A DNA stretch of 64,000 bases from Candidatus Kerfeldbacteria bacterium (GCA_963731735.1 CAVSWO010000002.1:564257-628256), one strand, 5' to 3'; positions 9,903-63,796 are shown, counted from the first letter of the stretch. The notes: generated by a model not told the origin, from the letters alone. A program made the numbers and translations.

Positions 9903-9979
9903 GGCCACTTAGCTCAGTTGGTTAGAGCGCACCGTTCACATCGGTGAGGTCGCTGGTCCGAATCCAGCAGTGGCCACCA
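9903..9979 (+). tRNA. tRNA-Val (anticodon CAC)
   Basis: Manual fold: acceptor GGCCACT/AGTGGCC, D-arm GCTC..GAGC, anticodon stem CACCG/CGGTG with loop TTCACAT, T-arm GCTGG-TCCGAAT-CCAGC, encoded CCA. Confidence 0.8.
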
Positions 9980-10710: not shown

Positions 10711-12117
10711 ATGCCCAAAGAATCATCCACCCCGCCGCAGCTGCTCCGCGGCATGAAAGACATTCTCCCGGTTGATCAAGAATACTGGGACTGGATTTAC
10801 GGTCAGATACAGCGCCTGGCGGCTGACTTTAGCTTCCAACGAATCGAAACCCCGGTGCTGGAAGCGACCAGCTTGTTTAATCGGTCAGTCGGAGACCAAA
10901 CTGACATCATTCAAAAAGAGATGTACACCTTTACGGATAAGAACGGGGACTCGGTCAGCCTGCGTCCGGAGAATACCGCCGGGGTAGTCCGGGCCTATAT
11001 TGAGCACGGTATGCTGAATCAGCCGCAACCGGTTAAACTCTGGTACTTCGGTCCGTTTTTCCGCCATGACCGGCCCCAAGCCGGCCGCTATCGCCAATTT
11101 TGGCAATACGGGTTCGAGGTCTTTGGGGCTGACCAGCCAATCATCGAAGCCCAACTGATCCTCTTGACCCGCGGTTTGTTTACGGCCCTGGGGATTGAAA
11201 CGACGCTGCAAATCAACAGTATTGGGAACGCCACCACCCGCCAGCATTTCACCAAAGCCCTGCAGGCATTTATGAAAAACAAGAAGTCGGAGTTGAGTGA
11301 TGACCAGCGCCTACTGCTGCAAAAAAACCCACTCCGGCTGCTTGACAGTAAAGATGAAAAAATCCGCTCACTGCTTGAGGGGGCGCCGCAGATGCTGGAT
11401 TACCTGGATGACGAGTCCAAGCAGCACTTTGAAGCGGTGGTCGAGTATTTAGATGAACTCGATATTCCGTTTGTCTTAAATCCTCGGCTGGTGCGCGGCC
11501 TCGATTACTACAATCGGACAGTCTTCGAATTCTGGGCCGCCGGCGACGATACCGGCGCGACCAGTTTAGCCGGTGGCGGACGATATGATCGGTTAGTTGA
11601 ACAACTCGGCGGTCGGCCGACGCCGGCGATTGGCCTGGCTGGCGGCATCGAACGCCTCATCTTGACCCTTAAGGAAAAGCAAATCGCTCCGCCGCCACCC
11701 GAACCCCCGGAACTCTATTTGGCACAACTGGGTGAACCGGCTCGCAAGAAAATGTTACGCTTGTTTGATCAGTTACGCAGCCATGGTTTACGGGTAGCCG
11801 AATCGATGACCAAGGATGGACTCAAGCAACAACTCGAAAACGCCAACAAGGTCGGCGCCCACTACACCCTGATCATTGGGCAAAAGGAATTGATGGATGA
11901 TACGGTGCTGATCCGCGACATGGAAAACGGCATGCAAGAAGTGGTGGCTTATGACAAGACGCCCGAAACCATGCAAAAGCGGTTGGCAAAAAGCCGAGCC
12001 AACGGCGTTAAGCCGGTAACCGGCCAGGTGCAGATTGAACGCTCAACGCTGCGCGATCCGGAACCGAGCGAGGTTGACGGTAATGATGGTGGCGATGGCG
12101 GCGACAGCGATGGTTGA
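10711..12117 (+). CDS. hisS: Histidyl-tRNA synthetase (class II)
   Basis: LRGMKDILP, FRHDRPQAGRYRQF (motif 2) and GGGRYDRL (motif 3). There is an acidic C-terminal tail. Confidence 0.85.
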   Translation: MPKESSTPPQLLRGMKDILPVDQEYWDWIYGQIQRLAADFSFQRIETPVLEATSLFNRSVGDQTDIIQKEMYTFTDKNGDSVSLRPENTAGVVRAYIEHGMLNQPQPVKLWYFGPFFRHDRPQAGRYRQFWQYGFEVFGADQPIIEAQLILLTRGLFTALGIETTLQINSIGNATTRQHFTKALQAFMKNKKSELSDDQRLLLQKNPLRLLDSKDEKIRSLLEGAPQMLDYLDDESKQHFEAVVEYLDELDIPFVLNPRLVRGLDYYNRTVFEFWAAGDDTGATSLAGGGRYDRLVEQLGGRPTPAIGLAGGIERLILTLKEKQIAPPPPEPPELYLAQLGEPARKKMLRLFDQLRSHGLRVAESMTKDGLKQQLENANKVGAHYTLIIGQKELMDDTVLIRDMENGMQEVVAYDKTPETMQKRLAKSRANGVKPVTGQVQIERSTLRDPEPSEVDGNDGGDGGDSDG

Positions 12118-24859: not shown

Positions 24860-24975
24860 TTTCTATCCACTAACCCTTTTGCGCCATGCCGCACACGCAC
24901 CTCAAGACTGACCGCCTCCGGACCGCTGAGCCAGCTGTTCGTATTGCTGAACCGCCCAAACGTAAAGGACCAGGC

Positions 24976-27900
24976 ATGAAAATCTCCCGCCGTTGGACAA
25001 CGGCCGGACAAGACCCGCTCGAACAGCTGGAATACGCGATGCGACAATCCGTTATTCGCAATCCGGACGGCACGATCGTCAAAGAAATTACTGACGTTGA
25101 AGTTCCGACCAGCTGGAGCCAGGTGGCGACCGACATCATGGCCCAAAAGTATTTCCGCAAAGCTGGTGTCCCGCAATTTGATGGGCAAGGAAAGCCGCGG
25201 GTGGCGGCCGATGGCCAGCCAATTTTGGGTTCGGAAACGAGCGCCAAGCAGGTCGTCCGACGTTTAGCCGGTACCTGGCGCTGGTGGGGTGAACAGCACG
25301 GCTATTTCGCTTCGACCGATGACGCCCAGGCCTATCAAGATGAAATGGAATATACGCTGATCCGACAGTTTGGCGCGCCGAACTCACCCCAATGGTTTAA
25401 CACCGGCCTTAACAGGTCCTACGGCATAACCGGTTCGCCGCAGGGGCACTACTACATTGATCCGGAAACCGCCGAACTTAAGCGATCGGAAGACGCCTAT
25501 ACGCACCCGCAACCGCACGCCTGCTTTATCCAAAAAGTTGATGATGATCTGGTCAACGAGGGCGGGATTTTTGATCTGGTGACGCGGGAAGCCCGCCTAT
25601 TCAAATTTGGATCCGGCACGGGCAGCAACTTCTCCTCGCTGCGGGGGAAAGGCGAACGCCTCTCCGGCGGCGGCCAGAGCTCCGGGCTGATGTCGTTCCT
25701 GAAAATTTTTGACCGTTCGGCCGGTGCGATTCAATCCGGCGGGACGACCCGGCGAGCCGCCAAGATGGTGGTGGTTGATGTTGATCACCCGGACGTCCAG
25801 GATTTCATTCGCTGGAAAGTTGTGGAAGAACAAAAAGTCGCCGACTTGTATGCCGGCAGCCGGATTAACGCCAAGTACCTGAACGAGATTATGCGGGTGG
25901 CGCATGCCGAGAACTCAATCGATTATCATAAGAACCCCGCTTTGAAAGCGGTCGTTGGCGAGGCGCTCAAGCGCAATGTACCGCTGAATTACGTCTTACG
26001 CGTGTTGGCCCTGGTCGAACAAGGCCAAAGCAGCATTGATTTTCCGACCTACAGCACCCACTTTGAAGATGAAGCCTATCAAACCGTTTCCGGGCAAAAC
26101 GCGAACAATACGGTTCGCGTGACTAATGATTTTATGGAGTCGGTTGAGCGCGATGCGAGCTGGGATTTGATCAACCGAACCACCAACGAACCATCGAAGA
26201 CCTTGCCGGCCCGACAACTTTGGGAAGAAATCGCCCAAGCCGCCTGGGCCTCGGCCGATCCGGGACTGCAATTCGATACCACCATCAACGAATGGCATAC
26301 CTGTCCGGCTGATGGACGGATTAACGCCTCCAACCCGTGCTCGGAATATATGTTCCTGGACGATACGGCCTGCAACCTGGCGTCGATCAACCTGGCCCAC
26401 TTCTATGATACTGACAGTGGCCAAATTGATGTCGAAGCCCTCAAGCACACGACGCGGCTTTGGACCATTACCTTGGAAATATCGGTCTTAATGGCACAAT
26501 TCCCAAGTCGGGAGATTGCGCGCCTGTCGTATATTTATCGCACGCTGGGACTCGGCTATGCCAACTTAGGCAGCGTCTTAATGATGATGGGGGTACCTTA
26601 CGATTCGCCCGAAGCCTTGGCCATTGCCGGATCAATCACGGCTATCATGTGCGGCGAGTCATATGCGACCAGTGCCGAACTAGCCAGCCACCTCGGGCCC
26701 TTCCCGGGCTTCGACCAAAACCGCGACCACATGTTGCGCGTGATTCGCAATCATCGCCGGGCGGCTTACAACGCACCGACCGGGGAATATGAAGGCTTGT
26801 CGATTACGCCGATGGGCATCGATCCAAAACAGGCGCCGGACTACTTAGTTAAACATGCACGGGAAACCTGGGACCGGGCGCTGCAGTGGGGGAAAGAACA
26901 TGGATATCGGAACGCGCAGGTGACGGTGATTGCTCCGACCGGAACCATCGGTCTGTTGATGGACTGCGATACGACCGGTGTTGAGCCGGACTTCGCGATC
27001 GTCAAGTTCAAAAAGCTGGCCGGCGGCGGTTATTTCAAAATCGTCAACCAATCGGTGCCGCGCGCCCTCAAGCGGCTGGGGTATGTGGACGAACAAATTG
27101 AAGCGATCAAAAATTACTCAAAAGGTCACGCGACCTTATCGGGCGCGCCGCATATTGATCACGAGACACTCAAGGCCAAAGGCTTGACCGACGAAGATCT
27201 GGCGAAAGTTGAATTGCAACTGGATTCAGCTTTTGATATCCGTTTTGTCATCAATCCAACCACCTTAGGTGAAGCGGCGATGGAGCGACTGGGTCTCGGC
27301 CAGCACGCCGGCGAGCCAAGTTTCAACGTGCTCGAAGCCATTGGCTTTACCAAAGCCCAAATCGAAGCCGCCAATGAATATGTGGTCGGGACAATGACGA
27401 TCGAAGGCGCGCCCTTCCTCAAACCCGAGCATTACCCGATATTTGATTGCGCCAACAAGTGCGGCGTGAAAGGCGAACGGTACATTCCGTACACCGCGCA
27501 CATCAAAATGATGGCCGCCGTCCAGCCCTTTATCTCCGGTGCGATTTCGAAAACCATTAACATGCCGAACGACGCCACGATTGAAGAGGTGAAACAAGTG
27601 CACGATGATTCCTGGAAACTCATGCTTAAGGCCATCGCCCTCTATCGTGATGGATCAAAACTGTCACAACCGCTCAACTCGGTCAATGTGGATGATGAAT
27701 TAGCCGCCTTGGGCGTGGCCGAAGACGATGTGGCCGAACCGACTCCGCAAGTCATGAACGATATCGCAGCCGTTCGCGCGATCAAGGAAAAACTGCCGCC
27801 GAAACGCGTCGGTTGGACGCAGGAAGCGATTGTTGGCGGACACAAAGTTTTCATTAGAACAGGTGAGTACAACGATGGCCGCTTGGGTGAAGTCTTCATT

Positions 27901-28392
27901 GATATGTATAAAGATGGTGCCGCCTATCGTTCACTCATCAACTGCTTCGCCATCCTGGTCTCCAAGAGTCTCCAGTACGGCATGCCGCTTGAGGAACTGG
28001 TCGATACTTTCACCTTTACCCGGTTTGAACCGTCCGGCATGGTTCAGGGGCACTCGAACATACGCTTCTCGACCTCCATCCTGGACTACATTTTCCGCTT
28101 GCTGGGATATGAATATCTGAACCGCGAAGACCTGGTCCAAATCAAACCGGAACACAGCAACGGCGAAGAAAACTCCACCAGTGCCACGCACGACACACCA
28201 CCACCGGCGGTCTCCAAACCGGCCGCCCAGCCGTCTGCCCCCGCCACGTCGATCATAGGCGATGACCGTTCTCAAGCGCGCGCCCAAGGCTTTACCGGCG
28301 ATACTTGCTCCAGCTGCGGCTCGATGAAAATGAAGCGCAACGGATCCTGCATGGTTTGTATTGAGTGTGGGACAACCACGGGGTGTTCCTAA
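24976..28392 (+). CDS. nrdJ: Ribonucleotide reductase, class II (adenosylcobalamin-dependent), large monomeric form with C-terminal Zn ribbon
   Basis: Active-site [16 protein letters not shown], the C-terminal CSSCGS...CMVCIECG motif, ~1138 aa. No intein motifs were seen. Confidence 0.85.
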
Positions 28393-47770: not shown

Positions 47771-47848
47771 GGACCCGTGGTGTAGCCCGGTTAACACGTC
47801 TCCCTGTCACGGAGAAGATCGAGGGTTCGAATCCCTTCGGGTCCGCCA
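47771..47848 (+). tRNA. tRNA-Asp (anticodon GUC)
   Basis: Manual fold: acceptor GGACCCG/CGGGTCC, anticodon stem TCTCC/GGAGA with loop CTGTCAC, T-arm GAGGG-TTCGAAT-CCCTT, encoded CCA. Confidence 0.8.
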
Positions 47849-52325: not shown

Positions 52326-52714
52326 TGGTGGAGATGGCGGGTCTCACACCCGCGTGACGATGGACTACTCTTCAACCCGATCCGTGCGCATTCCGCTCAA
52401 GCATGTCTCCATCAGGGACAGAGCGGACGAGTACCCTGCTGGAGGTGTTCAGAGAATTCGCAGTGATGCATCTGAACGTTTCACCACTGGTCCGACGAAG
52501 GTGACACCCGTGATCGGCCTAGTCGGAGTCGACCGGACGGATGGCATTACGCGATTAGGCGAATGCAGGCGCTAAGGACGGGACGCTGAAAGCATTCCGA
52601 AGCTTAGCGAGAAGGTTTTTGGCACTTCTCAATTTCTCCACATTAACGACGGTGGAAACGTGTCGGCACGAGGCGGAAAAGCTGTCAACGATCGTTCGAC
52701 GTTTGAACATCCCC
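52326..52714 (-). ncRNA. ssrA: tmRNA (SsrA), one-piece, adjacent to smpB
   Basis: Minus strand: 5' GGGGAUGUUCAAACGUCGAACG... (compare GGGGCUGAUUCUGGAUUCGAC). The 3' end is ...GCGGG-UGUGAGA-CCCGC-CAUCUCC-A-CCA. The acceptor pairs GGGGAUG/CAUCUCC with a G3:U70 wobble. The tag ORF resumes at GCC (nt 92): AKNLLAKLRNAFSVPSLAPAFA then stop. The T-loop sequence is atypical. Confidence 0.55.
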
Positions 52715-52850: not shown

Positions 52851-53297
52851 CTAAACTTTCTGTCGCATCGCTCGGCCAATTTTCCGTTCGGTTTCGCGTT
52901 GCTTGATGGTCGCCCGTTTGTCTTTCTTGCCTTTGCCTCGGCCAAGGCCGAGTTCAACTTTGATTAGGCCGCGTTTGGTATACAGGGTGAGGGGGACCAG
53001 TGTCAGCCCGGCGCTTTTGAGGGTCCCAATCATGCGGTCGATATCGCTCCGTTTAACCAACAACTTTCGTGAACGATCTGGATCGGATTGATTATTGCCG
53101 GCCGGTTTGTAGTGGCCGATGTGGGCATTGATGAGCCACAGCTCCGAACCCTTGATGGTGGCGTAGCTGCCTTTCAACGAAACGTTACCGGCTTTAACGG
53201 ATTTAACCTCCGGTCCGGTTAAACGAATACCCGACTCGAGAGTTTCCAGGATCGAGAATTTGTGGTGGGCATCGCGATTGGTGGCCAAGGTCGGCAT
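52851..53297 (-). CDS. smpB: SsrA-binding protein SmpB
   Basis: FSILETLESGIRLTGPEVKSVK...SLKGSYA, 148 aa from the MPTLATN Met. Confidence 0.85.
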   Translation of the reverse strand: MPTLATNRDAHHKFSILETLESGIRLTGPEVKSVKAGNVSLKGSYATIKGSELWLINAHIGHYKPAGNNQSDPDRSRKLLVKRSDIDRMIGTLKSAGLTLVPLTLYTKRGLIKVELGLGRGKGKKDKRATIKQRETERKIGRAMRQKV

Positions 53298-53325
53298 ATG
53301 AAAAGTGTACCATGCCGGCAAAGCT

Positions 53326-53335
53326 GATGTATAAT
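53326..53335 (+). promoter_or_regulatory. Extended -10 (TGTATAAT) 8 nt upstream of the argS ATG (leaderless-type promoter)
   Basis: TG at 53328-29 and TATAAT at 53330-53335; argS ATG at 53344. Confidence 0.35.
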
Positions 53336-53343
53336 GAAACGGT

Positions 53344-54966
53344 ATGATTCTGCCGATTGCGCAACTCCGGAAACTCCTGGAAAAAGCGATTGCCAAGGCT
53401 TACCCGGATGTAACCGAGCTGGAGATTCCGATTGACCGACCGCATGCCGCCGGGCATGGCGATTATGCCTCTTCGGTCGCCATGAAATTGGCTACCCAGG
53501 TTGGACAACCGCCGCGAGAAGTGGCGCAACATCTGGTGGCGCAAATCGGCCGGTCGCCAATGTTAACCAAGGCCGAAGTGGCTGGCGCTGGATTCATTAA
53601 TTTTTTCGTGGCCGAGAAGTGGTTGCTGGGCTACCTGGCAAAAATATTGGCGGATAAAAACTTCGGCGCCAATGCCAGCGGGCAAGCCAAACGGATGGTG
53701 GTCGAATTTATCTCCGCCAATCCGACCGGGCCGATGACGCTCGGGAATGGGCGCGGGGCGTTTGCCGGCGACACCATGGCCAATGTCTTGGCCCTGGCCG
53801 GCTGGCGCGTGACTCGCGAGTACTATCTGAATGACGTCGGCAACCAGGTCAACATCTTAGCCGAGTCAGTCATCCGACGGTATTTTCAACTCCAGGGAAT
53901 TCCAACCGATTACCCGGAGCATTTATATCAGGGCGAATATATTACCGACTTAGCTAAGACCCTCAAGCTCGACAAGATGAAATTGCAGGACATGCAGACA
54001 TTGCAGGCCCGCATCAAAGTTCGGTTGCTCAACCTGATGATTCGCGACATTCAACGGGTGGTTGAGAAAAAGTTGAAAGTCAAATTCAACACCTGGGTGC
54101 GGGAGAGCGGTTTGTACGATCGCAATTTAGATCAAAAAGTACTCGAGCACCTGCGACGTCACGGTCTGCTGTCGGAAAAAGATGGCGCCACCTGGTTCCG
54201 AACCAGCGCCTTCGGTGACGACAAGGATCGGGTGTTGATCAAACGCGATGGCGAAAAAACCTATTTACTCTCTGATGTGGCCTTACGGTTCAACCGGTTT
54301 GCTCAACGCGGCCTCGATCGGGAATTAATTTTTCTGGGCGCGGATCACCATGGCTATGTCAAACGCTTAGAAGCGATTATGGCCGCCCTCGGTTACGCCG
54401 GACAAATCGACGTCCAACTGGTGCAATTGGTCAGGTTATTGCGTGACGGGAAAGAAGTCAAAATGTCGAAACGAGCGGGAACCTACGTGACGTTGGAAGA
54501 AGTGGTGGATGAGGTTGGCCTGGATGCCGCTCGATTCTTTTTCCTGATGCATGCGCCAAATACCCACATGGATTTCGACATTACCCTGGCCAAAGAGCAA
54601 TCCGATAAAAATCCGGTTTACTATGTCCAGTATGCCAGCGCCCGAATGTTTAGTATCCTGGCTAAAACCAAGAAACTTCCCATCCGGCGCTTGCGAGAAC
54701 CGGCGCATGAGGCTGAATTGGCGCTGATCAAACGCTTTTTGCAATTGCCCGAACTGGTGACTGAACTGGCCGCCTCCCGGGAAGTCCAGCAATTAGCCTT
54801 TTATGCTCAGGATTTGGCTCGAGATTTTCACGATTTCTATACACAGTGCCGGGTGATTGAAGACAACCACGTGTGGGACCGTCGTTTGCAACTGGTCCAA
54901 GCCGCCCGCCTGGTTCTTGGGAAAACGCTGGGCCTGATGGGCATTACCGCCCCGGAACGAATGTAG
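53344..54966 (+). CDS. argS: Arginyl-tRNA synthetase (HIGH motif replaced by TLGN)
   Basis: SANPTGPMTLGNGRGAFAGD, NDVGNQ and MSKRAGT (KMSKS-like), 540 aa. Confidence 0.85.
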   Translation: MILPIAQLRKLLEKAIAKAYPDVTELEIPIDRPHAAGHGDYASSVAMKLATQVGQPPREVAQHLVAQIGRSPMLTKAEVAGAGFINFFVAEKWLLGYLAKILADKNFGANASGQAKRMVVEFISANPTGPMTLGNGRGAFAGDTMANVLALAGWRVTREYYLNDVGNQVNILAESVIRRYFQLQGIPTDYPEHLYQGEYITDLAKTLKLDKMKLQDMQTLQARIKVRLLNLMIRDIQRVVEKKLKVKFNTWVRESGLYDRNLDQKVLEHLRRHGLLSEKDGATWFRTSAFGDDKDRVLIKRDGEKTYLLSDVALRFNRFAQRGLDRELIFLGADHHGYVKRLEAIMAALGYAGQIDVQLVQLVRLLRDGKEVKMSKRAGTYVTLEEVVDEVGLDAARFFFLMHAPNTHMDFDITLAKEQSDKNPVYYVQYASARMFSILAKTKKLPIRRLREPAHEAELALIKRFLQLPELVTELAASREVQQLAFYAQDLARDFHDFYTQCRVIEDNHVWDRRLQLVQAARLVLGKTLGLMGITAPERM

Positions 54967-54985
54967 TTGTTCGGAACCGACGACG

Positions 54986-54994
54986 TGCTATAGT
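54986..54994 (+). promoter_or_regulatory. Extended -10 (TGCTATAGT) 6 nt upstream of the GT4 ATG (leaderless-type)
   Basis: TATAGT at 54989-54994; ATG at 55001. Confidence 0.35.
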
Positions 54995-55000
54995 ACCAAT

Positions 55001-56140
55001 ATGCGAATTGGTATCGATTGTCGCACGATCCTGAACCCCGAATCCGGGGAACGGGCGGGTGTGGGTCACTACACCTATCATTTGGTCAAGGCGCTGTTGG
55101 CAATCGATCCGGACAATCAATACGTCTTGTTTTTTGACGCGCGCATGAAAGCCGAGGGGACCCAGGAATTCGAGCAGTCAAACGTGACGATTCGTTTTTT
55201 CCCGTTTTCCCGATACCGAAAATTTTTACCGTTTGCATATTCGCATATGCTAACCGCGGCCGCTTTGGCTCGCGAGCGATTGGATGTATTTCATGCGCCG
55301 GCCAATGTTATTCCCCTCAGTTATCGCGGCACCAGTGTACTGACCATTCACGACTTAGCGATTTACCGCCATCCGGAATGGTTCCAGACACAGGTCATGT
55401 CGACACACTTGTTAGTTCCGCGTTCGATCCGCAAGGCCAAACAGGTAATTGCCGTCTCGCAAGCCACCAAGCGAGACCTGCGCGAACTCTTTCATCTGGC
55501 CGAGCAAAAGGTTAGCGTGGTTCCCGAAGCGGTGGATGTGCAGCTGTTGCCGCTGGAAGACAGTCAAGACGACGTTAGAACGCTGTACAGATTGCCGGAG
55601 CGCTTCTTGCTCTTTATCGGGACTATTGAACCGCGAAAAAACATTTCACGCTTAATTGAAGCTTGGCAACATTTGCGGTTGCTTGATCCGGAGACGACCA
55701 ATGGCACGAAACTTGTCTTAGCCGGAGGCCTCGGCTACCACGGCCGCGATATTTTAACTCCGGTCCGGGCGATGGATCTCGACATCCAATATTTGGATTA
55801 CGTTAGTCATAATCACAAAATACAATTGCTGCAAGAAGCGACCGCCTTCGTTTTTCCGTCACTCTACGAGGGTTTTGGATTACCGGTTTTGGAAGCCATG
55901 GCCCTCGGTACCCCGGTGATCACCACTAAAACCAGCGCCATACCCGAAGTCACCGGTCAGGCGGCGATCTTAGTTGATCCGGATGATATGGATGGATTGG
56001 CGGCGGCCATGGGACACATTTTACGTGACCCTCGCCGGGCGGCGGAGATGGCCGCGCTGGGCCGCGACCAAGCCCGGAATTTCTCATGGGCACAAACCGC
56101 CGAACAAACGCTGGATGTCTACCGCCGGGCGGCGGCCTAG
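55001..56140 (+). CDS. GT4-family (GT-B fold) glycosyltransferase
   Basis: C-terminal EGFGLPVLEAMALGTPVITT EX7E motif, 379 aa. Confidence 0.8.
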   Translation: MRIGIDCRTILNPESGERAGVGHYTYHLVKALLAIDPDNQYVLFFDARMKAEGTQEFEQSNVTIRFFPFSRYRKFLPFAYSHMLTAAALARERLDVFHAPANVIPLSYRGTSVLTIHDLAIYRHPEWFQTQVMSTHLLVPRSIRKAKQVIAVSQATKRDLRELFHLAEQKVSVVPEAVDVQLLPLEDSQDDVRTLYRLPERFLLFIGTIEPRKNISRLIEAWQHLRLLDPETTNGTKLVLAGGLGYHGRDILTPVRAMDLDIQYLDYVSHNHKIQLLQEATAFVFPSLYEGFGLPVLEAMALGTPVITTKTSAIPEVTGQAAILVDPDDMDGLAAAMGHILRDPRRAAEMAALGRDQARNFSWAQTAEQTLDVYRRAAA

Positions 56141-56150
56141 TTGACCCCGA

Positions 56151-56534
56151 TTGCATATTCAGGTAGGCTCGGTGCAATCGCTTTGTCGTGCTCTCGCCGA
56201 GGAGGAAATCGTGCAGTCGTTCATTCGTTGCATCCGCGTCTACGCGCGTCGTCGAACCAGACAAGCTCGGCCATTCTTACTGGTCTTGCGGTTATTGGGC
56301 ATTCCGATGGCCGCGCTGGCCCTGCAATTCCTGGTGGGTGAAAAAACGCTGACGTTCGTGGTCGATTACCTGTTCGATGTTCTGACTTGGGCTCTGATGA
56401 TTTCGGCCCTGCCGATCATGGTTATCGCCTGGGTCGCCGGCAGCAGTCCCGGTCAAGCCTGGATCAGCCAGCAACAAAAACTCTCGCGGCTAACCGAAGG
56501 CCAAGAAACCGAAGCGTCGAAAATGCCGTCCTAA
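56151..56534 (+). CDS. Small membrane protein (hypothetical)
   Basis: 127-aa ORF with 2 TM helices, followed by a terminator. Confidence 0.45.
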   Translation: MHIQVGSVQSLCRALAEEEIVQSFIRCIRVYARRRTRQARPFLLVLRLLGIPMAALALQFLVGEKTLTFVVDYLFDVLTWALMISALPIMVIAWVAGSSPGQAWISQQQKLSRLTEGQETEASKMPS

Positions 56535-56567
56535 CCCCCAAGCGCCATGCGTGAGGGGGTCTTTTTT
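56535..56567 (+). terminator. Rho-independent terminator (CCCCC...GGGGG + TCTTTTTT)
   Basis: GC stem flanking a 15-nt loop, followed by a T-run. TTGACG-17-CATAGT promoter-like hexamers follow. Confidence 0.5.
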
Positions 56568-56639
56568 GACGGAATTGTATTACAAGCGCATAGTTACCGT
56601 GAAGGGGAGTTAATACCCTAATCATAAATGTAAAAAATC

Positions 56640-57359
56640 ATGACAAAAATTATAGAAAACCCAACACCAAATCAATCCTCAGGTTTAGCACGATCACGTT
56701 CATACAGAGCAGCTTGGTTTGTGGTGGGAGTAATGATGCTTTTCTCTATACCCATCGTCGGAATGCAGCTATCGCTCATGGGGCCGGGCAATGGTGCACT
56801 TACGTTACTTTTGGATATCATTTTCCTTCCAGCCTTGTGGTTATCGAGTGCTGTCATAGCCGCGCTGTTCATACGGGTTTTCCCAATTACAAAACATACA
56901 GTTGGAATCGTCTTGGCTACCATTCTTTCCGGACTTGTTATTTTATTTTTTGGCTGGTCATCGCTTTCAATTTTAAAAACAAGCCATCCCGATACCAGGA
57001 CATGGAGAACATGCGATTTTAAGACTTTATTGTTCCCCTTCGCGGTTCATGACTACTGCAGTGATTTGCCTCCACTTGAGTCAACTCAAGCAGCCAATGT
57101 TTCGGACTGCGCACTCATTAAAGAAAAGGGGTATTGGAATGGATGCATACACAAGTTTATGAAGACAGAATCTGATTTTCAAACGTGTCTCGTGCAAGCT
57201 GAAGAGCGTGCCCAATCAACACTCAATGATCGATCACGAGCAATATGTGGACTAGCCTATGCCTTAGTAACGAAGAATAGTTCCGTTTGCAATGCACTGA
57301 CTGAAGCAGGTGATAAAACATATTGTCTTTCGCAGTACCAATTCAGTGTGCCGGATTAA
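56640..57359 (+). CDS. Low-GC polytopic membrane protein with Cys-rich C-terminal domain (hypothetical)
   Basis: 239 aa, 4-5 TM helices, C-terminus with 8 Cys. GC is visibly lower than in neighbours. Confidence 0.55.
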   Translation: MTKIIENPTPNQSSGLARSRSYRAAWFVVGVMMLFSIPIVGMQLSLMGPGNGALTLLLDIIFLPALWLSSAVIAALFIRVFPITKHTVGIVLATILSGLVILFFGWSSLSILKTSHPDTRTWRTCDFKTLLFPFAVHDYCSDLPPLESTQAANVSDCALIKEKGYWNGCIHKFMKTESDFQTCLVQAEERAQSTLNDRSRAICGLAYALVTKNSSVCNALTEAGDKTYCLSQYQFSVPD

Positions 57360-57386
57360 CACAGAACGGCCTGAAGACAACTTATT

Positions 57387-57415
57387 TTGACGGGGAGGAA
57401 AATTGCTGGTATAGT
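57387..57415 (+). promoter_or_regulatory. Sigma70-like promoter TTGACG-17-TATAGT upstream of ileS
   Basis: Exact spacing; ATG 34 nt downstream. Confidence 0.5.
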
Positions 57416-57449
57416 TTACCGTGCGATCTGATAAATCGCCTTCACGCTT

Positions 57450-60400
57450 ATGGCCGCCCCCAATTTCCCCGAACTCGAAAAGAAGATCCTGCAGGACTGG
57501 CAGGCGAATTCAATTTTCCAAAAAACCCTCGAGCAGACGAGGAACGGGGAACGCTTTGTGTTTTTTGAAGGCCCGCCGACGGCCAACGGCAAGCCGCACA
57601 TGGGCCACGTTGAAACACGGGCGTTTAAAGACGTCGTGCTGCGCTACAAGACCATGCGCGGGTTTTTTGTTGAACGGAAAGCCGGCTGGGACACGCAAGG
57701 TTTGCCGGTCGAACTGGAAGTTGAAAAATCCCTTGGCATCTCCGGCAAGAAAGACATTGAAGCGTACGGGGTAGAAAAATTCAACGCCGAAGCCAAACAG
57801 TCGGTTTGGAAATATAAAGACCTATGGGAGAAAATGACCGACCGGGTTGGGTTCTGGCTCGATACCTCGGATCCGTACATCACGTATAGTAATGACTACA
57901 TTGAAACCCTGTGGTGGATTTTTAAACAGATTTGGGATCAAAAACTGCTGATCCAGGATTACAAAGTCGTGCCGTACTGTCCGCGCTGCGGGACCGCACT
58001 ATCGAGTCATGAAGTTGCGCAGGGCTACGAGTCGGTGACCGAACCGGCGGTGTATGTAAAATTTGAACTGGTGGATGAACCGGGAACCTTTGTCCTGGCT
58101 TGGACCACCACTCCCTGGACCTTGCCGGGGAACGTGGCGCTGGCGGTGGATGAAAAAATTGAATATAGCCAAGTGACGGTCGGCCAGGAAAAACTGCTGC
58201 TAGCCAGCGCGCTGGTCGAGCGAGCAGTTGGTGCGAATGCGACGATAGAAAAATCATTCCCCGGCAAAGAATTACTCGGCAAGAAATACAAACCACTCTT
58301 TGATTTTTTGGACCTTGGAAAAGAATCAGGAAAGAACGCCTACGTCATCGTGCCGGCCGATTTCGTGACAACCGAAGATGGCACGGGTGTCGTTCATACG
58401 GCGGTGATGTACGGGGTTGATGATTTTCAACTCGGTCAAAAACTTGATTTGCCAAAAATCCACACGGTCGATGAAGCCGGTAAATTTACTGCGCTGGTGA
58501 AACCGTGGGACGGCCAAGAAGTGCGGGATCCGGACGGGAAAACGCAAGCCGAAATCATTGCCTGGCTGCAAGCCCACCATAAACTCTACAAGGTTGAAGA
58601 CTATACTCACGACTATCCGTTCTGCTGGCGATGCAAACACCCACTTTTGTATTACGCAAAAACCTCCTGGTTTATTCTGATGTCGAAATTGCTCGATCAG
58701 CTGATAAAAAATAATGAGAAAGTCAACTGGTCTCCCGCCCATATCAAGGACGGCCGGTTTGGCGAATGGCTCCGAGAGGTTAAAGATTGGGCGATTTCCC
58801 GCGAACGCTACTGGGGCACGCCGCTACCGATCTGGGAATGCAACCAGTGTAAGCATCAGGAGTGCCTCGGATCGTATCAGGAGCTCCTGGACCGCCTACC
58901 GGCCAGGAATCGATACATTTTTATCCGACACGGTGAATCGGAAAATAACGTGACGGACACATTAGATACGATGTTGCCGGATGGTTCATCGAATTTAACG
59001 GCCAAGGGGCGGGCGCAATCAGCCACCGCAGCCGAAGCGCTCCAATCGGAAACTGTCGACGCGATTTTCACCTCGCAATTTCCGCGCGCTCGGCAGACCG
59101 CCGCGGTGATTGCCGAAAAGCTGAAGTTGCCGGTCACTGAGGATCAGCGATTGAATGAATTTCAAATCGGACCGAAGTTCGAAGGCAAAACCATCAAGGA
59201 ATTTCATCAACAGTTCGGCGATCGAACCAAACGCTTATCCGAAGCGCCGCCCGGCGGGGAAACATGGCTGCAACTGCGGCAACGGATGATAGACTTTTTA
59301 CACGAATTGGACGCCAAACATACCGGGAAAACATTTGTTATCGTGTCACACGCGGACCCGATTTATGTGGCCGCTTGGGCGGCTTCCCTGCGAGCGGATT
59401 CCCAAATTCCGGATATTGAGTATCCGAAGAATGCCGAACCCTATGAGGTCAAGTTCGTCAGCCAGCTCTTCCAACCAGACGGCAGCTTCGACCCCCATCG
59501 TCCGTACAGCGATACATGGACGTGGCCATGCGCTCATTGCCAGCAGGGGACAATGCGCCGCGTGCCGGAAGTCGCCGATACCTGGTTCGACTCGGGTTCG
59601 ATGCCGTTTGCCCAATGGCACTACCCATTTGAAAATACTGATCGAATAAAAAAAGGGAAGAGTTACCCGGCTGACTATATCACCGAGGCGATTGATCAAA
59701 CGCGCGGTTGGTTTTACACCTTGCTGGCGATTGCAACCCTGTTGCAAAAATCCAAAGCGGTCAAAGCCGGTCCGCCTTATAAAAACGTGGTGGTGCTTGG
59801 CCACGTGCGCGACGCCAAAGGAAAGAAACTTTCGAAGAGCGCCGGGAATTATATTGATCCGCTGGAACTTATCGACCAGCACGGCGCCGATCCGATCCGC
59901 TTCTACTTGATGACCATGAATCAACCGGGCGATCCGAAAAATTTCGACCCGAAGGGTCTGGATGAAGTCATCAAGAAAACTTTTCTGATATTGATGAATG
60001 TGGTCAGCTTCTGGAAACTCTATGCCGGTAAAGCGACGGCGGACGTGACGACCGCCGATCATCCGCTTGACCGCTGGATCTTGGCCAAAACCGCCGAACT
60101 GACCAAGCAGGTGACGGATGGACTGGAAGCCTATGACATAACCGGTGCCGGCCGGTCGATTGCCAGTTGCATCACCGATCTGTCCACCTGGTACGTCCGG
60201 CGCAGTCGCGATCGTATCAAAGGCGATGACCGCCCGATGGTGACGTCGGTCTTGCGGCAGGTGCTGATGACGCTGGCGCAGCTGCTGGCACCCTTCACCC
60301 CGTTCCTAGCCGAACAGGTCTATCGTGAGGTGGGTGGCAGACTGGCTTCGGTTCACCTTGAACCGTGGCCGGCCTCGGCTTCGGTCGACCGTAAAATTTT

Positions 60401-60905
60401 GGAGGAGATGCAGGCCTTACGCCAATGGATTGAGCAAGGGCATGCGCTGCGCGCGCAGGCGGGACTCAAGGTCCGCCAGCCGCTTCAACAATTCGTGGTG
60501 GCGAAATCGGTTCCCAAAGAACTGCATGCCATCTTGCGGGCGGAGCTGAATGTCAAAGAAATCCATGATCAAACGGCGCTGCCGGAGGGACCGGAATGGG
60601 TCAAAACGGATAGGGTGGCCCTCGATACCACGCTGACGGATGAACTCAAAGCCGAAGGAATGTTGCGCGATCTCGTGCGGGAATTTAACGCCCTTCGTAA
60701 AACGGCCCAGCTGCAACCGAGCGACATTATCGTGGCACACGTTCAACCGCAAACCGTCGCTGCCCAAGTGGTTGAACGCTTCGCGCAACAATTCTTAAAA
60801 GAAGTGCGTGCCAAAGCTGCCACGCCTTCGGTGGCCGGCGCGGCCCATACGGCTGCAATTACACTAGACGGACAATCGGTCATGATCGGACTCTCGATCG
60901 GCTAA
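57450..60905 (+). CDS. ileS: Isoleucyl-tRNA synthetase, type 2 (no C-terminal Zn finger), carrying a ~200-aa histidine-phosphatase domain insertion
   Basis: PHMGH (HIGH), editing-domain TTTPWTLPGNVALAV, WGTPLPIW, DTWFDSGS and KKLSKS. 1151 aa. Confidence 0.9.
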   Translation: MAAPNFPELEKKILQDWQANSIFQKTLEQTRNGERFVFFEGPPTANGKPHMGHVETRAFKDVVLRYKTMRGFFVERKAGWDTQGLPVELEVEKSLGISGKKDIEAYGVEKFNAEAKQSVWKYKDLWEKMTDRVGFWLDTSDPYITYSNDYIETLWWIFKQIWDQKLLIQDYKVVPYCPRCGTALSSHEVAQGYESVTEPAVYVKFELVDEPGTFVLAWTTTPWTLPGNVALAVDEKIEYSQVTVGQEKLLLASALVERAVGANATIEKSFPGKELLGKKYKPLFDFLDLGKESGKNAYVIVPADFVTTEDGTGVVHTAVMYGVDDFQLGQKLDLPKIHTVDEAGKFTALVKPWDGQEVRDPDGKTQAEIIAWLQAHHKLYKVEDYTHDYPFCWRCKHPLLYYAKTSWFILMSKLLDQLIKNNEKVNWSPAHIKDGRFGEWLREVKDWAISRERYWGTPLPIWECNQCKHQECLGSYQELLDRLPARNRYIFIRHGESENNVTDTLDTMLPDGSSNLTAKGRAQSATAAEALQSETVDAIFTSQFPRARQTAAVIAEKLKLPVTEDQRLNEFQIGPKFEGKTIKEFHQQFGDRTKRLSEAPPGGETWLQLRQRMIDFLHELDAKHTGKTFVIVSHADPIYVAAWAASLRADSQIPDIEYPKNAEPYEVKFVSQLFQPDGSFDPHRPYSDTWTWPCAHCQQGTMRRVPEVADTWFDSGSMPFAQWHYPFENTDRIKKGKSYPADYITEAIDQTRGWFYTLLAIATLLQKSKAVKAGPPYKNVVVLGHVRDAKGKKLSKSAGNYIDPLELIDQHGADPIRFYLMTMNQPGDPKNFDPKGLDEVIKKTFLILMNVVSFWKLYAGKATADVTTADHPLDRWILAKTAELTKQVTDGLEAYDITGAGRSIASCITDLSTWYVRRSRDRIKGDDRPMVTSVLRQVLMTLAQLLAPFTPFLAEQVYREVGGRLASVHLEPWPASASVDRKILEEMQALRQWIEQGHALRAQAGLKVRQPLQQFVVAKSVPKELHAILRAELNVKEIHDQTALPEGPEWVKTDRVALDTTLTDELKAEGMLRDLVREFNALRKTAQLQPSDIIVAHVQPQTVAAQVVERFAQQFLKEVRAKAATPSVAGAAHTAAITLDGQSVMIGLSIG
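58880..59520 (+). other. Histidine phosphatase (phosphoglycerate-mutase-like, His_Phos_1-type) domain inserted between the IleRS QEL..R and DPHRPY Zn-knuckle elements
   Basis: RYIFIRHGESENN (RHG catalytic His), LTAKGRAQS, RARQTAAVI, RLNEFQIG, PGGETWLQLRQRM and IVSHADPIY (second His). The flanks align to T. thermophilus-type IleRS without a gap-filling sequence. Confidence 0.7.
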
Positions 60906-60906
60906 T

Positions 60907-61662
60907 ATGGCCTCGGTCATCCAAACCCGCGCCCTGATTCTTCATCATAGCGACCACCGGGAGCACGATCGATTGTTGACGGTGCTCAGCCCGGAACTCG
61001 GGAAGATCCAGGTCCGGGCGCGGGGTTCCAAGAAAGGGATCTCGAAACTCGGTGGCTCACTTGAACCGGTGACGGAGGTGGATTTGACGATCGCCAACGG
61101 ACGACAGCTGGACGTCGTGACCGGCAGTATCATTCTGGAACGCTGGCCGCAGTTGCGACAAGATGTAGTCGGTCTGGTGGCGGCGCAGTGGCTACTTGAA
61201 CTGATTGAAAAAGTAACGAAACCCAACCAACCCGAACCGGAACTGTATCAGCAGCTCAAAAATATGCTGAGCGCCATCCAGGCTGAAGCCGGACAGTCGG
61301 AAGGACGACGTTGGATCCAATTACTCCGGCGCGCATGGAACATTTTGCAGCATGAAGGTTTTGTGGCCGAGAGTCGGATTTGTAGCCGCTGTCATCGGAT
61401 GATTGAACCCGGGCAACACGCTTTTGATCCGTTGCACGGGTGGCTGCACCGCCGCGAAGCGGGTCCACACGCGCAATCAGTGTCAGCCGCCGCCGTCGAT
61501 TTTCTGAATGGACAACCCGCTCAGGACGATCCCAAGAAGATATTTCACGTCACGCACCGTTTAGTGCAAAGCGTGATTGAGCAGACGCTTGATCAACCGC
61601 TTCGGAGCGAACGGGTATTACAGAAGGTTATGCGAGTCTCGAAGTTGTCAGCTTCCGAATAA
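60907..61662 (+). CDS. recO: DNA repair protein RecO
   Basis: The N-terminal OB-fold pattern (ALILHHSDHREHDRLLTVLSPELGKIQVRARGS) is followed by a C-terminal Cys cluster (CSRCHR). Confidence 0.7.
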   Translation: MASVIQTRALILHHSDHREHDRLLTVLSPELGKIQVRARGSKKGISKLGGSLEPVTEVDLTIANGRQLDVVTGSIILERWPQLRQDVVGLVAAQWLLELIEKVTKPNQPEPELYQQLKNMLSAIQAEAGQSEGRRWIQLLRRAWNILQHEGFVAESRICSRCHRMIEPGQHAFDPLHGWLHRREAGPHAQSVSAAAVDFLNGQPAQDDPKKIFHVTHRLVQSVIEQTLDQPLRSERVLQKVMRVSKLSASE

Positions 61663-61684
61663 GTCGGTACACTAGAAGTCGCTC

Positions 61685-63796
61685 ATGACTCCGAAAAGCA
61701 AAAAACACAACCCATCGGAAAAGTCACCATTCCGGCCCCAGGATCGGAAGGCTTTTTTAGAGGCGCTGCGCCGTCATCATGATGATCCGGTTGCCGCCCA
61801 GGCCGAGCTCGACCAGCACCAACCAGACGACACCGAATCAGAATTCCCATCCGATCATGTCCAGCCAGAGGCGGCGACGCCCAAAACTCAACCAGTCACC
61901 CCAGCCGCCGGGAAAAAAATTACCGTCACCACCGCCACTGATTCGGCTGAAACCCCGGAGACTGATGGAGCCGGCCTGGAAGCCGTCTTAGAGGATTCCG
62001 CTCAGCCCCCGAAAACGCCGCCGCCAGAAATGGGTAAATTACAACGGAGCAAAAAACGTCGTTCGTGGCCGTGGGGCTGGACCATCGGCGGGTTGCTGGT
62101 GATTGCCGTTGCCACAGTTGGAGGGTTTTTGTGGTTTAATCGAGCCCAGCGTTTTAGCGGGGATCAGGTAAACCTATCGGTCCAAGCCCCCAGTCAGCTG
62201 GCTTCGGGCAGCGACGTAACCATTACCTTTGCTTTTCAAAATTCGGAGCCGGTTGACCTGGTTGGCGCCGAGTTAACGGTTGAATACCCCGAAGGCTTTC
62301 GAATAACCAAGACCAGTCAGCCGAGCGTCAATGATTTTACTAACGCCTTTACGATCGGCACGATCAAGCACGGCCGGGCCGGCACCGTCACGGTGGACGG
62401 AGTCTTATTCGGTTCGGTTGGGGCGAAGCGTGAATTTTCAGCCACCTTGAACTACCGGCCGAAAAACTTCAGTTCAGATTTTCAAGTCACCGCGAAAACC
62501 ACCATCGATATCAATAGTTCATTATTAGAACTTAAAGTTGACGGACCGAAAAAGCTGGCCCCGAATGCTGAAGGCACCTGGACGCTCACTTATACAAATT
62601 CTTCGGATCGTGATTTGTCAGACGTGCAAATCGAAGCGATCTATCCGGATGGCATTGATGTGACCGCCGTCGACCCGGCGGCCGTCGAGCGATCTGCTCT
62701 CTGGCGTTTTGATCAGGTGCCAAAGGGCGAGTCGGGCAAAATTACGATTACCGGACATGCCGTCGGAGAAGTTGGCGATTCGCTTGAAATGATATTCCGA
62801 GCGGGCTTGGTCAATGCTGCGAATACGGTTGACGTTCAGGCGGAGCAAAAAATTCTGGTGGTGCTGATTAGCACCGGCGTCACAACCAGCGTGGCTGCCA
62901 ATGGCGTGGCGGAAAATAGCGTTATTTCCCCGGGGGAGCGCTTGCAGTACGCGGTGAAAGTCGCCAATCAGAGCGAAGCCGAAGTCAGCAACTTGACCGT
63001 CAGCTTGACGGTTGAGGGAACCGGCGCCGATTTTGACCAGTTGGATAATCCAACACGGGCCGATGTTCAGGATCAGACCTTAACCTGGACCAAGCAGCAG
63101 GTGAGCGGCCTGGATGTACTGAAGCCCGGTCAGGATGTGACCCTGCGATTTGGTCTGGGTACAGTTGATGCTTTGCCGGTGGCCCAGGACACGGATATTG
63201 ATCCGCACATTACCGTTTCCGTTAGCGTAACTTCACCGAGCTTACCGGTTGACCCGAACCCAAAACCGGCGGCGGTCTTTACCACCAAGTTTGCGACGGC
63301 CGTCTCACTCACGGCTGAGTCGCGATACTATGATGACGACGGCACCGTGCTGGGTGACGGACCAGTGCCACCCCAGGTTGGGCAAACCACGAAGTATCGC
63401 GTCCGTTGGACCCTGACGAACACCACCAGCGCCGCAAATTCGATGCACGTCACGGCCACCTTACCGACCAGCGTTTTTTGGACCGGTCAGAACATTTCTC
63501 GCGGAGCCGGTGATATTGCGTTTGATCCGTCATCTCGAGTGGTGACCTGGACAATTAATCAAGTTCCAGCCGGAACCGGATCACGCTTACCAGCCCTGGT
63601 AGCTGAATTCGAAGTCTCGATCACTCCGATTGCGAGTCAGGTGGGATCACCCGTCATCCTGACGCAATCCACCGCCGCCACGGCCACCGACGCCTACACT
63701 GACCAGGCGATTGCCTTGACTCAGCCTTCGACCACGACGGATGTACCAACCGATCCAACCGCGGCTGGCCAGGGCTCGGTTGTAGCGGCTCCATAA
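61685..63796 (+). CDS. Membrane-anchored surface protein with repeated beta-sandwich (DUF11/CARDB-like) domains (hypothetical)
   Basis: ~130-aa cytoplasmic N-terminus, TM WTIGGLLVIAVATVGGFLWF, then a ~550-aa extracellular repeat region. Confidence 0.65.
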   Translation: MTPKSKKHNPSEKSPFRPQDRKAFLEALRRHHDDPVAAQAELDQHQPDDTESEFPSDHVQPEAATPKTQPVTPAAGKKITVTTATDSAETPETDGAGLEAVLEDSAQPPKTPPPEMGKLQRSKKRRSWPWGWTIGGLLVIAVATVGGFLWFNRAQRFSGDQVNLSVQAPSQLASGSDVTITFAFQNSEPVDLVGAELTVEYPEGFRITKTSQPSVNDFTNAFTIGTIKHGRAGTVTVDGVLFGSVGAKREFSATLNYRPKNFSSDFQVTAKTTIDINSSLLELKVDGPKKLAPNAEGTWTLTYTNSSDRDLSDVQIEAIYPDGIDVTAVDPAAVERSALWRFDQVPKGESGKITITGHAVGEVGDSLEMIFRAGLVNAANTVDVQAEQKILVVLISTGVTTSVAANGVAENSVISPGERLQYAVKVANQSEAEVSNLTVSLTVEGTGADFDQLDNPTRADVQDQTLTWTKQQVSGLDVLKPGQDVTLRFGLGTVDALPVAQDTDIDPHITVSVSVTSPSLPVDPNPKPAAVFTTKFATAVSLTAESRYYDDDGTVLGDGPVPPQVGQTTKYRVRWTLTNTTSAANSMHVTATLPTSVFWTGQNISRGAGDIAFDPSSRVVTWTINQVPAGTGSRLPALVAEFEVSITPIASQVGSPVILTQSTAATATDAYTDQAIALTQPSTTTDVPTDPTAAGQGSVVAAP

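Follow-up and report, generated by a model that had tools for sequence, protein, structure and literature searches.

Introduction

Whether a second enzyme lodged inside an essential aminoacyl-tRNA synthetase works for its host, or is simply carried by it, is the question raised by a gene of a Candidatus Kerfeldbacteria bacterium, here named ileS::His_Phos, which encodes an isoleucyl-tRNA synthetase (IleRS) interrupted by a domain of the histidine phosphatase superfamily. The gene is located in a 64,000-nucleotide (nt) stretch of one strand (GCA_963731735.1, CAVSWO010000002.1:564257-628256), referred to as the window, and its features are collected in Table 1; proteins and loci gathered for comparison carry P and L numbers, and residues are numbered in amino acids (aa).

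It can be regarded as practically certain that the feature is real and conserved and that the nested phosphatase is, judging from its residues, catalytically intact; since the synthetase and the phosphatase parts both look functional, the product is most likely a bifunctional enzyme. An initial annotation of the window had proposed an in-frame domain insertion and not a gene fusion or a frameshift, and this view is borne out by the junctions shared in dozens of assemblies and by the continuous composition of the gene. The profile search with PF00300, the alignment of IleRS orthologues and the structure prediction of the full protein that had been suggested at that stage were all carried out, and each is in agreement with the insertion.

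The Synthetase Body and the Insertion Site

The host is a canonical type-2 IleRS and the phosphatase is nested in the zinc-knuckle loop of its CP3 domain. The TIGR00392 ileS equivalog of NCBIfam is matched with 846.7 bits against a cutoff of 621.4, in two stretches flanking the insert, and the Pfam domain tRNA-synt_1 is likewise split in two (aa 13-484 and a later stretch); Pfam also recognizes the anticodon-binding domain, and DUF5915, the C-terminal domain of type-2 IleRS, at aa 1056-1147. The type-2 status agrees with the best matches in the PDB, which are Priestia megaterium IleRS2 (8C8V) and Thermus thermophilus IleRS (1ILE), well above the type-1 enzymes 1FFY and 8C9E; the two type-2 enzymes share with the window protein the domain order, the C-terminal domain and the CP3 zinc knuckle but have nothing inserted in CP3. 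The models of the mupirocin-resistance proteins MupA and MupB are matched with 722.6 and 715.5 bits, under the NCBIfam exception cutoff of 1900.

Both halves of the synthetase had been annotated as intact and they are so, with the HIGH and KMSKS motifs, the editing motifs and the four zinc cysteines all kept; in particular, the columns of the HIGH, KMSKS and CP1 editing motifs are invariant across 73 aligned relatives. The full-length AlphaFold2 model has a mean predicted local distance difference test score (pLDDT) of 92.8 and a predicted template modelling score (pTM) of 0.85, with pLDDT values of 92-96 in the linker regions, and its IleRS body superposes on 1ILE (TMt 0.91) and on 8C8V (TMt 0.82).

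CP3 is the link between CP2 and the second Rossmann-fold half; its topology differs between solved IleRS, and in T. thermophilus IleRS it contains a zinc-binding motif (PMC7191050). The insertion point is assigned to CP3 on the basis of the flanking CxxC pairs, of the alignment to 1ILE and 6LDK, and of that domain description. The four-cysteine motif is present as in the T. thermophilus enzyme and is predicted to bind metal; its conservation is similar (89-100%) in IleRS with and without the insert.

The same region, corresponding to aa 464-700 of the window protein, is a hot spot of other small insertions in the alignment: L003 has about 22 aa inside the first zinc knuckle, L001 a low-complexity segment of about 28 aa in the second one, and L074 about 25 aa at the phosphatase site; in L008, L010, and L011 the zinc cysteines of CP3 are lost. 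A 238-aa open reading frame (ORF) antisense to ileS (59346-60062, minus strand) is almost certainly spurious.

Borders and Family of the Nested Domain

The insert, placed at first at 58880-59520 with a length of about 200 aa, is delimited by the alignment with insert-less IleRS to nt 58896-59486, i.e., 197 aa; relatives with the insert have it at the same site and those without it have a loop of about 10 aa, which the insert replaces. The flanking IleRS elements are located at aa 455-467 before the domain and at aa 681-716 (DPHRPY…CAHC…WFDSG) after it. His_Phos_1 (PF00300) is matched at aa 490-669 with an E value of 1.2e-37 and 129.9 bits against a cutoff of 21.7, covering positions 2-181 of the 194 of the profile, and all the motifs quoted in the initial annotation are found: RHGESENN (aa 493-500), LTAKGR (516-521), RARQTA (546-551), RLNE (567-570), GGETW (602-606), and IVSHADP (631-637).

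By sequence, the closest solved relatives are the phosphoserine phosphatase PspA of Hydrogenobacter thermophilus (4IJ5) and the broad-specificity phosphatase PhoE of Geobacillus stearothermophilus (1EBB/1H2E), with E values of about 3e-13. The model of the excised domain (pLDDT 91.6, pTM 0.89) gave 4IJ6, 1H2E, and 4PZ9 as best Foldseek matches, with probability 1.0, TM scores of 0.73-0.76 and 24-27% identity; the top fold matches comprise PspA, PhoE, glucosyl-3-phosphoglycerate phosphatase (GpgP), a riboflavin-pathway phosphatase (HFP) and CobC. According to this model, the insert has the alpha/beta fold of branch 1 of the histidine phosphatase superfamily. PhoE and PspA (1H2E/1EBB and 4IJ5/4IJ6) agree with it in length (about 200 aa), in their set of catalytic residues and in having a GGE motif; they differ in being free-standing and only 24-27% identical, and their substrate specificity is not transferable to the insert.

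The domain had also been called similar to phosphoglycerate mutase (PGM), a designation that holds at the level of the superfamily and fails at that of the subgroup: the insert belongs to the small PhoE/PspA-type phosphatases and is not a phosphoglycerate mutase. That a glycolytic cofactor-dependent PGM (dPGM) is lodged in IleRS is accordingly a very improbable explanation, although it has in its favor the superfamily membership and the fact that the best, weak, match among NCBIfam phosphatase-family models is dPGM_arch. The dPGM equivalogs are far under their cutoffs (NF038349, 90 against 225 bits; NF002217, 37 against 320; NF002339, 36 against 316), the size of about 190 aa is that of a phosphatase, and the longer mutases rank below the phosphatases in both sequence and fold matches. 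Moreover, dPGMs are proteins of 230-250 aa with ERHYG after the catalytic acid and HGN(S) at the second histidine, motifs absent from the insert, which reads RLNEFQIG and SHADP at these places. A PGM seems to be absent from some Parcubacteria, perhaps owing to forms too divergent to be detected (Jaffe et al. 2020), which is a further point in favor of this explanation; the mutase identity was nevertheless rejected on model scores, motifs, size, and ranking of fold matches. The PspA equivalog NF045917 (76.4 against 350 bits) and TIGR03162, the equivalog of the alpha-ribazole phosphatase CobC (77.3 against 162.9), are not reached either and, as the dPGM, PspA, and CobC models are all far under their cutoffs, the substrate is not readable from homology.

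Catalytic Residues and Selection

The phosphatase had been described as active-looking, an impression strengthened by the retention of every catalytic residue. In the 99 nested copies aligned, conservation at the catalytic positions, including E604 and R612, is within 93-100% (Table 1), and the extra copies of the domain at other sites also keep the catalytic core. In the sole close pair with available DNA (L004/L005, with about 0.6 synonymous substitutions per site, dS), the insert has a ratio of nonsynonymous to synonymous substitution rates (dN/dS) of 0.03, and the IleRS body one of 0.06. The phosphatase is under purifying selection and looks active.

Authenticity and Distribution

An identical protein (P0387) is encoded on a contig of 822,872 bp, and PF00300 is found at the same place in 88 of the 120 best full-length IleRS relatives, about 45 of which are 52-70% identical to the window protein; those with a name belong to Candidatus Kerfeldbacteria, and in some cases their contigs measure 0.5-1 Mb. 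The scan of one genome per species gave 11 loci with a full insert at the same site and one truncated locus, the closest being from a Kerfeldbacteria genome (58-60% identity). When the insert was used alone as a query, the best 150 representatives (clusters at 50% identity) comprised about 100 class-Ia synthetases with the domain, nearly all IleRS, and 43 free-standing proteins of about 160-250 aa. The ileS::His_Phos arrangement is old and widespread in Patescibacteria (candidate phyla radiation).

The guanine-cytosine content is 0.531 in the insert, 0.539 in the rest of the gene and 0.537 in the window, without change at the borders. The possibility of an artefact, be it chimeric assembly, a frameshift, or a decaying pseudo-domain, found nothing in its favor beyond a slightly high codon-usage distance between insert and body (0.464, against 0.38 ± 0.036 for body chunks of equal size), a measure that also reflects amino-acid composition. 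The same junctions in at least 88 protein clusters of independent assemblies, the invariant catalytic residues and the low dN/dS of the insert leave it a negligible probability; chimeric assembly and frameshift in particular were rejected for the continuous frame, the same junctions in dozens of independent assemblies and the even composition.

The names given to these proteins in databases are inconsistent, as for P0005, P0007, P0013, P0328, P0330, P0403, and P0415. Insert-bearing IleRS are found in NCBI as "class I tRNA ligase family protein" or "histidine phosphatase family protein, partial", and at least two free-standing phosphatases of 189 aa are named "isoleucyl-tRNA synthetase" in JGI.

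Other Insertion Sites, Other Hosts and Evolutionary Dynamics

The same kind of domain occurs in at least three sites of IleRS: CP3, the region of aa 730/739 after the WFDSG strand, and that of aa 860/869 before the anticodon-binding domain, both approximate and in the numbering of the window protein. Some IleRS hold two domains (proteins with other sites are P0165, P0191, P0262, P0250, and P0140), and six contigs, the longest of 1.06 Mb, carry the two-domain architecture of P0165.

The domain is not restricted to IleRS. In P0186 (L098, 5001-8225), a bona fide valyl-tRNA synthetase (ValRS) that scores 873-948 bits with the valS models, above their cutoffs, the domain is nested in the catalytic domain; since neither argS nor ileS is present in the neighbourhood of that gene, adjacency cannot explain this insertion. 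In a single cluster the domain is fused to the C-terminus of arginyl-tRNA synthetase (ArgRS). Outside the synthetases, P0239 (L099, 6001-7707) joins an N-terminal His_Phos_1 to PUA_2 and ATP-sulfurylase domains, in a cluster of three members from independent contigs; its gene is directly upstream of a sulfotransferase gene, within a glycan-synthesis cluster. Overall, of about seven events of fusion or insertion that appear to be independent, roughly five concern class-I synthetases, and a sixth one concerns this other ATP- and pyrophosphate-related enzyme. In the alignment, P0239 has Gln at the position of the general-acid Glu. A His_Phos_1 domain of the same group is also found in the middle (aa 506-653) of P0241, a protein of 1343 aa with a DUF7178 region.

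In the tree of the IleRS body, built with the insert masked, insert-bearing and insert-less proteins interleave, with 11 changes of state. The divergence of the insert is correlated with that of the body (r = 0.74) and proceeds at a higher rate. Discordance is seen in a few pairs, such as one with 81% identity in the body and 39% in the insert and another with 62% and 80% respectively; these pairs suggest occasional replacement or exchange of the domain. Across sites and hosts, the identities of the domain copies in the nearest-neighbour analysis are all 30-46%.

Gene Neighbourhood and Origin of the Domain

Free-standing homologues of about 190 aa are abundant, and the few with a source name are from Patescibacteria. 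In five of the six neighbourhoods sampled, the free-standing gene is immediately upstream of an insert-less type-2 ileS, and in four of these five the order is argS, phosphatase gene, ileS, small ORF, recO, adjacent genes overlapping or lying apart by a few bases. Conversely, in the five insert-bearing loci with upstream sequence, ileS::His_Phos comes after argS and a free phosphatase gene between the two is lacking. This complementary pattern, with a free phosphatase gene beside insert-less ileS and none beside ileS::His_Phos, suggests that a neighbouring gene moved into ileS. The either/or of nested and adjacent forms is true of the loci of Paceibacteria type; it fails in the insert-less relatives of Kerfeldbacteria type, which have neither form locally.

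P0127, a ValRS fragment, has the order N-HP-N'-HP-HP-HP, with four copies of the histidine phosphatase domain (HP), and looks like a product or an intermediate of tandem duplication. The source of the domain would probably be the free-standing gene of about 190 aa found between argS and ileS in related lineages, which would have entered permissive surface loops of ileS, probably through a tandem duplication and a subsequent deletion; the domain would later have been lost or exchanged many times.

The block of the window (52863-63796) contains smpB (minus strand), argS, a GT4 glycosyltransferase gene, a membrane ORF, ileS::His_Phos, recO, and the gene of a DUF11/CLIPPER-type surface protein. 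A corresponding block is conserved in Patescibacteria (L087-L094, e.g., L087 3388-8536), with smpB (minus strand), argS, in some cases the free-standing phosphatase gene, ileS, a small ORF, recO, and a CLIPPER/DUF11 surface protein; the GT4 glycosyltransferase gene and the membrane ORF between argS and ileS pertain to the lineage of the window.

Possible Functions of the Nested Phosphatase

The phosphatase may be a tethered helper of adenylate-forming enzymes, clearing away a small phosphorylated molecule that arises as a by-product or acts as an inhibitor, a reading that is favored although only tentatively. The domain would be a catalytic unit of its own, outside the chemistry of aminoacylation, in which His494 would attack a phosphomonoester, Arg493, Arg546, and His634 would hold the phosphate and Glu570 would protonate the leaving group. 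The candidate substrates beside the host enzyme are a compound of 3'-phosphoadenosine type, such as adenosine 3',5'-bisphosphate (pAp) or 3'-nucleotides, AMP, and inorganic pyrophosphate (PPi). This reading derives from the hosts of fusions and insertions, among which enzymes using ATP and releasing PPi (IleRS, ValRS, ArgRS, ATP sulfurylase) are strongly over-represented; the occupation of at least three IleRS sites and the Nudix domain that accompanies two such domains in the SR1 IleRS (Kantor et al. 2013) also speak for it. In particular, the sulfation context of the ATP sulfurylase fusion offers an obvious job, the clearance of PPi or pAp. A 3'-phosphomonoester such as pAp suits the chemistry of histidine phosphatases better than PPi. 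The initial annotation had named tRNA 3' ends, diadenosine tetraphosphate (Ap4A), alarmones of the guanosine tetraphosphate (ppGpp) type, and a misacylation product as potential targets, most of which the comparisons neither favor nor oppose; a histidine phosphatase would not be expected to cleave Ap4A or ppGpp.

A broader proposal, possible but held with more reserve, is that the phosphatase is an unrecognized accessory module of class-Ia synthetases (IleRS, ValRS, and possibly ArgRS) in Patescibacteria, functionally integrated with them. It would relieve product inhibition by PPi, pAp-like nucleotides, or AMP, or heal 3'-phosphorylated tRNA ends. Its recruitment would be a recurrent one, as a partner in the operon, at more than one insertion site and in more than one synthetase.

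Several observations weigh against a functional link between the two activities. PPi would be an unusual substrate for branch-1 histidine phosphatases. The presence or absence of the domain changes 10-14 times over 25 bootstrap replicates of the IleRS body tree. The closest insert-less IleRS have the exact synteny of the window and no phosphatase gene beside ileS, hence IleRS works without the phosphatase; moreover, adjacency alone is weak evidence of coupling, because the block holds unrelated genes such as recO and smpB, and the sixth free-standing homologue sampled adjoins secA. No residue elsewhere in the IleRS body co-varies with the presence of the insert; the top co-variation columns are at the N- and C-terminal ends of IleRS, outside the catalytic motifs, and look lineage-driven, so that the insert behaves as a plug-in with an unchanged host. 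The fact that IleRS also carries unrelated domains, e.g., the GNAT domain for which an NCBIfam model exists, suggests that it is simply a permissive host. Finally, the ArgRS fusion could be a read-through of overlapping genes and is given little weight, because free-standing proteins make up all the nearest relatives of its domain and because, in relatives, the phosphatase gene and argS overlap.

Several of these observations favor the main alternative, plausible if somewhat doubtful, in which the domain is an autonomous housekeeping phosphatase, for example a broad-specificity phosphomonoesterase that serves nucleotide or metabolite salvage, with a function unrelated to IleRS. Duplication and deletion would have moved a neighbouring gene into tolerant loops, and both activities would have been kept since they are separately needed. 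This passenger would be at home in an argS-phosphatase-ileS-recO block that mixes functionally unrelated genes, would be gained and lost frequently, would be dispensable in the nearest insert-less IleRS and, as seen in the secA context, would also occur elsewhere; it would leave host residues and zinc knuckle unchanged. It is also favored by the tandem copies (two to four per protein), by the Nudix domains that IleRS hosts in addition to GNAT, and by CP3 itself, which is variable and peripheral (PMC7191050) and tolerates the other small insertions of L001, L003, and L074. What such an alternative leaves unexplained is the insertion in ValRS, in a neighbourhood unrelated to that block, and the concentration of independent events in class-I synthetases and in one other ATP- and PPi-related enzyme. 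Mechanistically, adjacency would most readily yield a fusion of the phosphatase to the N-terminus of IleRS, yet the best 150 matches include no such protein, and the confident linkers and arrangement of the full-length model suggest a fixed packing of the domain, which also argues against it.

A more specific task, considered unlikely, is the healing of tRNA 3' ends, in which the terminal adenosine of a damaged tRNA would be freed of a 3'-phosphate or of what an opened 2',3'-cyclic phosphate leaves behind; a class-I synthetase, charging the 2'-OH, would then make a usable aminoacyl-tRNA. All the synthetase hosts (IleRS, ValRS, ArgRS) are of class Ia, the free-standing gene is in a translation-related block (smpB, infC, rpmI, rplT, argS, ileS), and a tRNA end with a 3'-phosphate is the same chemical moiety as pAp, the by-product of sulfotransferases in the context of the ATP sulfurylase fusion. 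A precedent is the HD domain of the Escherichia coli CCA-adding enzyme, which has phosphatase and 2',3'-cyclic phosphodiesterase activities. However, the variety of the sites (CP3, after WFDSG, before the anticodon-binding domain, C-terminus of ArgRS) argues against a precise geometry at the acceptor end, a reaction in cis would gain nothing from several copies in tandem, and CP3, on the general topology of the Rossmann fold, is probably away from the catalytic cleft, leading into the N-terminal end of a core strand; in addition, we know of no histidine phosphatase acting on RNA ends.

Less probable still is a regulatory protein phosphatase acting on the synthetase or on a partner, for example one that reverses the action of a HipA/HipT-like toxin kinase on class-I synthetases near the KMSKS loop. 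The histidine phosphatase family does include protein phosphatases, namely SixA, PGAM5, and Sts-1, and all the synthetase hosts are of class I; nevertheless, no kinase was seen in the neighbourhoods examined, the closest relatives of the domain act on small molecules, and the ATP sulfurylase fusion does not fit such a role.

Comparison with Known Systems

Fusions that remove by-products are known, as in ATP sulfurylases joined to adenosine 5'-phosphosulfate (APS) kinase or to pyrophosphatase, and in the CCA-adding enzyme with its phosphohydrolase HD domain. The concept is the same as in the helper role favored here, a hydrolase tethered to an enzyme that uses ATP, releases PPi or acts on tRNA ends; these cases differ in that the hydrolases belong to the inorganic pyrophosphatase and HD families and are joined end to end instead of being nested in a loop, and the activity of the insert is only predicted. 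A histidine phosphatase domain is also part of an essential tRNA-related machinery in yeast, in the subunit τ55 of TFIIIC; this is, in contrast, a eukaryotic transcription factor in which the domain is terminal, and it has no evolutionary link to the insert. A curated IleRS with an extra small catalytic domain is described by the NCBIfam model ileS_w_GNAT (NF040702), whose additional domain is from another family and of which the window protein is not a member (299.8 bits against a cutoff of 1999).

The closest case is the IleRS of SR1 (Absconditabacteria), reported to contain one Nudix domain and two domains of the phosphoglycerate mutase family, with four enzyme regions, as is also the case in ACD80 (Kantor et al. 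2013, mBio, PMC3812714). This single sentence, the sole prior mention retrieved by the literature searches, together with the many insert-bearing proteins held in public databases, corrects the initial annotation, which was not aware of a described IleRS with such an insertion; the sentence gives no sites, catalytic analysis, distribution, or function. In both cases an IleRS of Patescibacteria is interrupted by histidine phosphatase domains, but the SR1 protein has three inserts and the window protein only one, in CP3; a regular-expression search for SR1-like three-insert forms found the Nudix box in none of the collected proteins. The operon-linked free-standing form, the several insertion sites and the other hosts extend what had been noted earlier.

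Features of the Gene and of the Window

Table 1. Positions of ileS::His_Phos, of its parts and of two neighbouring genes in the window.
Feature	Position (nt)	Strand	Remarks
argS (ArgRS)	53344..54966	+	Pfam Arg_tRNA_synt_N, tRNA-synt_1d and DALR_1
ileS::His_Phos gene, 1151-aa type-2 IleRS with nested phosphatase	57450..60905	+	Single uninterrupted ORF
IleRS N-terminal part, aa 1-482	57450..58895	+	Rossmann first half, CP1 editing domain, CP2, first half of CP3
HIGH motif (HMGH, aa 50-53)	57597-57608	+	In the IleRS N-terminal part
CP1 editing motif WTTTPWT (aa 218-224)	58101-58121	+	
CP1 editing motif GTGVVHTA (aa 311-318)	58380-58403	+	
CP3 zinc knuckle, first CxxC pair, C464/C467 (CNQC)	58839..58850	+	89-100% conserved with and without insert
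Nested histidine phosphatase domain, aa 483-679, 197 aa, PhoE/PspA-like	58896..59486	+	PF00300; borders from alignment with insert-less IleRS
RHG motif, R493 and predicted nucleophile H494	58926..58934	+	Each 97% in 99 nested copies, other 3% gaps
R546, second phosphate-binding arginine	59085..59087	+	100% conserved in 99 nested copies
E570 (RLNE), predicted general acid	59157..59159	+	E in 93%, D in 6% of 99 nested copies
H634 (SHADP), second catalytic histidine	59349..59351	+	100% conserved in 99 nested copies
IleRS C-terminal part, aa 680-1151	59487..60902	+	Rossmann second half, anticodon-binding domain, type-2 C-terminal domain
CP3 zinc knuckle, second CxxC pair, C694/C697 (CAHC)	59529..59540	+	
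WFDSG	59583-59597	+	In the IleRS C-terminal part
DQTRGWF	59694-59714	+	In the IleRS C-terminal part
KMSKS motif (KLSKS, aa 793-797)	59826-59840	+	
recO	60907..61662	+	Pfam RecO_N and RecO_C; conserved downstream neighbour, synteny anchor

The window fits a Patescibacteria genome, with genes nearly all on one strand, tmRNA (52326-52714, minus strand) beside smpB, FtsA/FtsZ, and several large surface proteins. Other translation-related genes are those of tRNA-Val(CAC) (9903-9979), tRNA-Asp(GTC) (47771-47848), and histidyl-tRNA synthetase (10711-12117), all on the plus strand.

A class II (B12-dependent) ribonucleotide reductase of 1168 aa (24886-28392, plus strand) has its barrel in two stretches and a TSCPD domain; it seems long for the family and may have an insertion of its own. 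The product of 13337-19009 (plus strand, 1890 aa) matches a type IV secretion system pilin at its N-terminus and contains Big_5 Ig-like domains; a place at the surface or in association with a pilus is probable for this large protein. A dockerin-containing protein (3556-4890) and a cohesin-containing protein (7474-9126), both on the plus strand, are encoded a few genes apart, amid ORFs without Pfam match, and may form a cohesin-dockerin surface assembly.

Significance

Synthetases with extra domains are a known theme, of which the nested phosphatase is a variant, widespread and previously noted only in passing. With it, a second active site, itself complete, is housed in the catalytic domain of an essential synthetase, one of a heavily studied class of enzymes in which additional domains have repeatedly proved to carry new biology; the phosphatase is present in many lineages of Patescibacteria, whose tiny genomes keep little without reason. 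The inconsistent labels of the proteins could distort metabolic reconstructions.

Coupling of the two activities would make the domain a new accessory function of synthetases. Without coupling, it would be a clean natural case of insertion of a domain from a neighbouring gene, marking CP3 and two other sites of IleRS as permissive, which could be useful to protein engineering.

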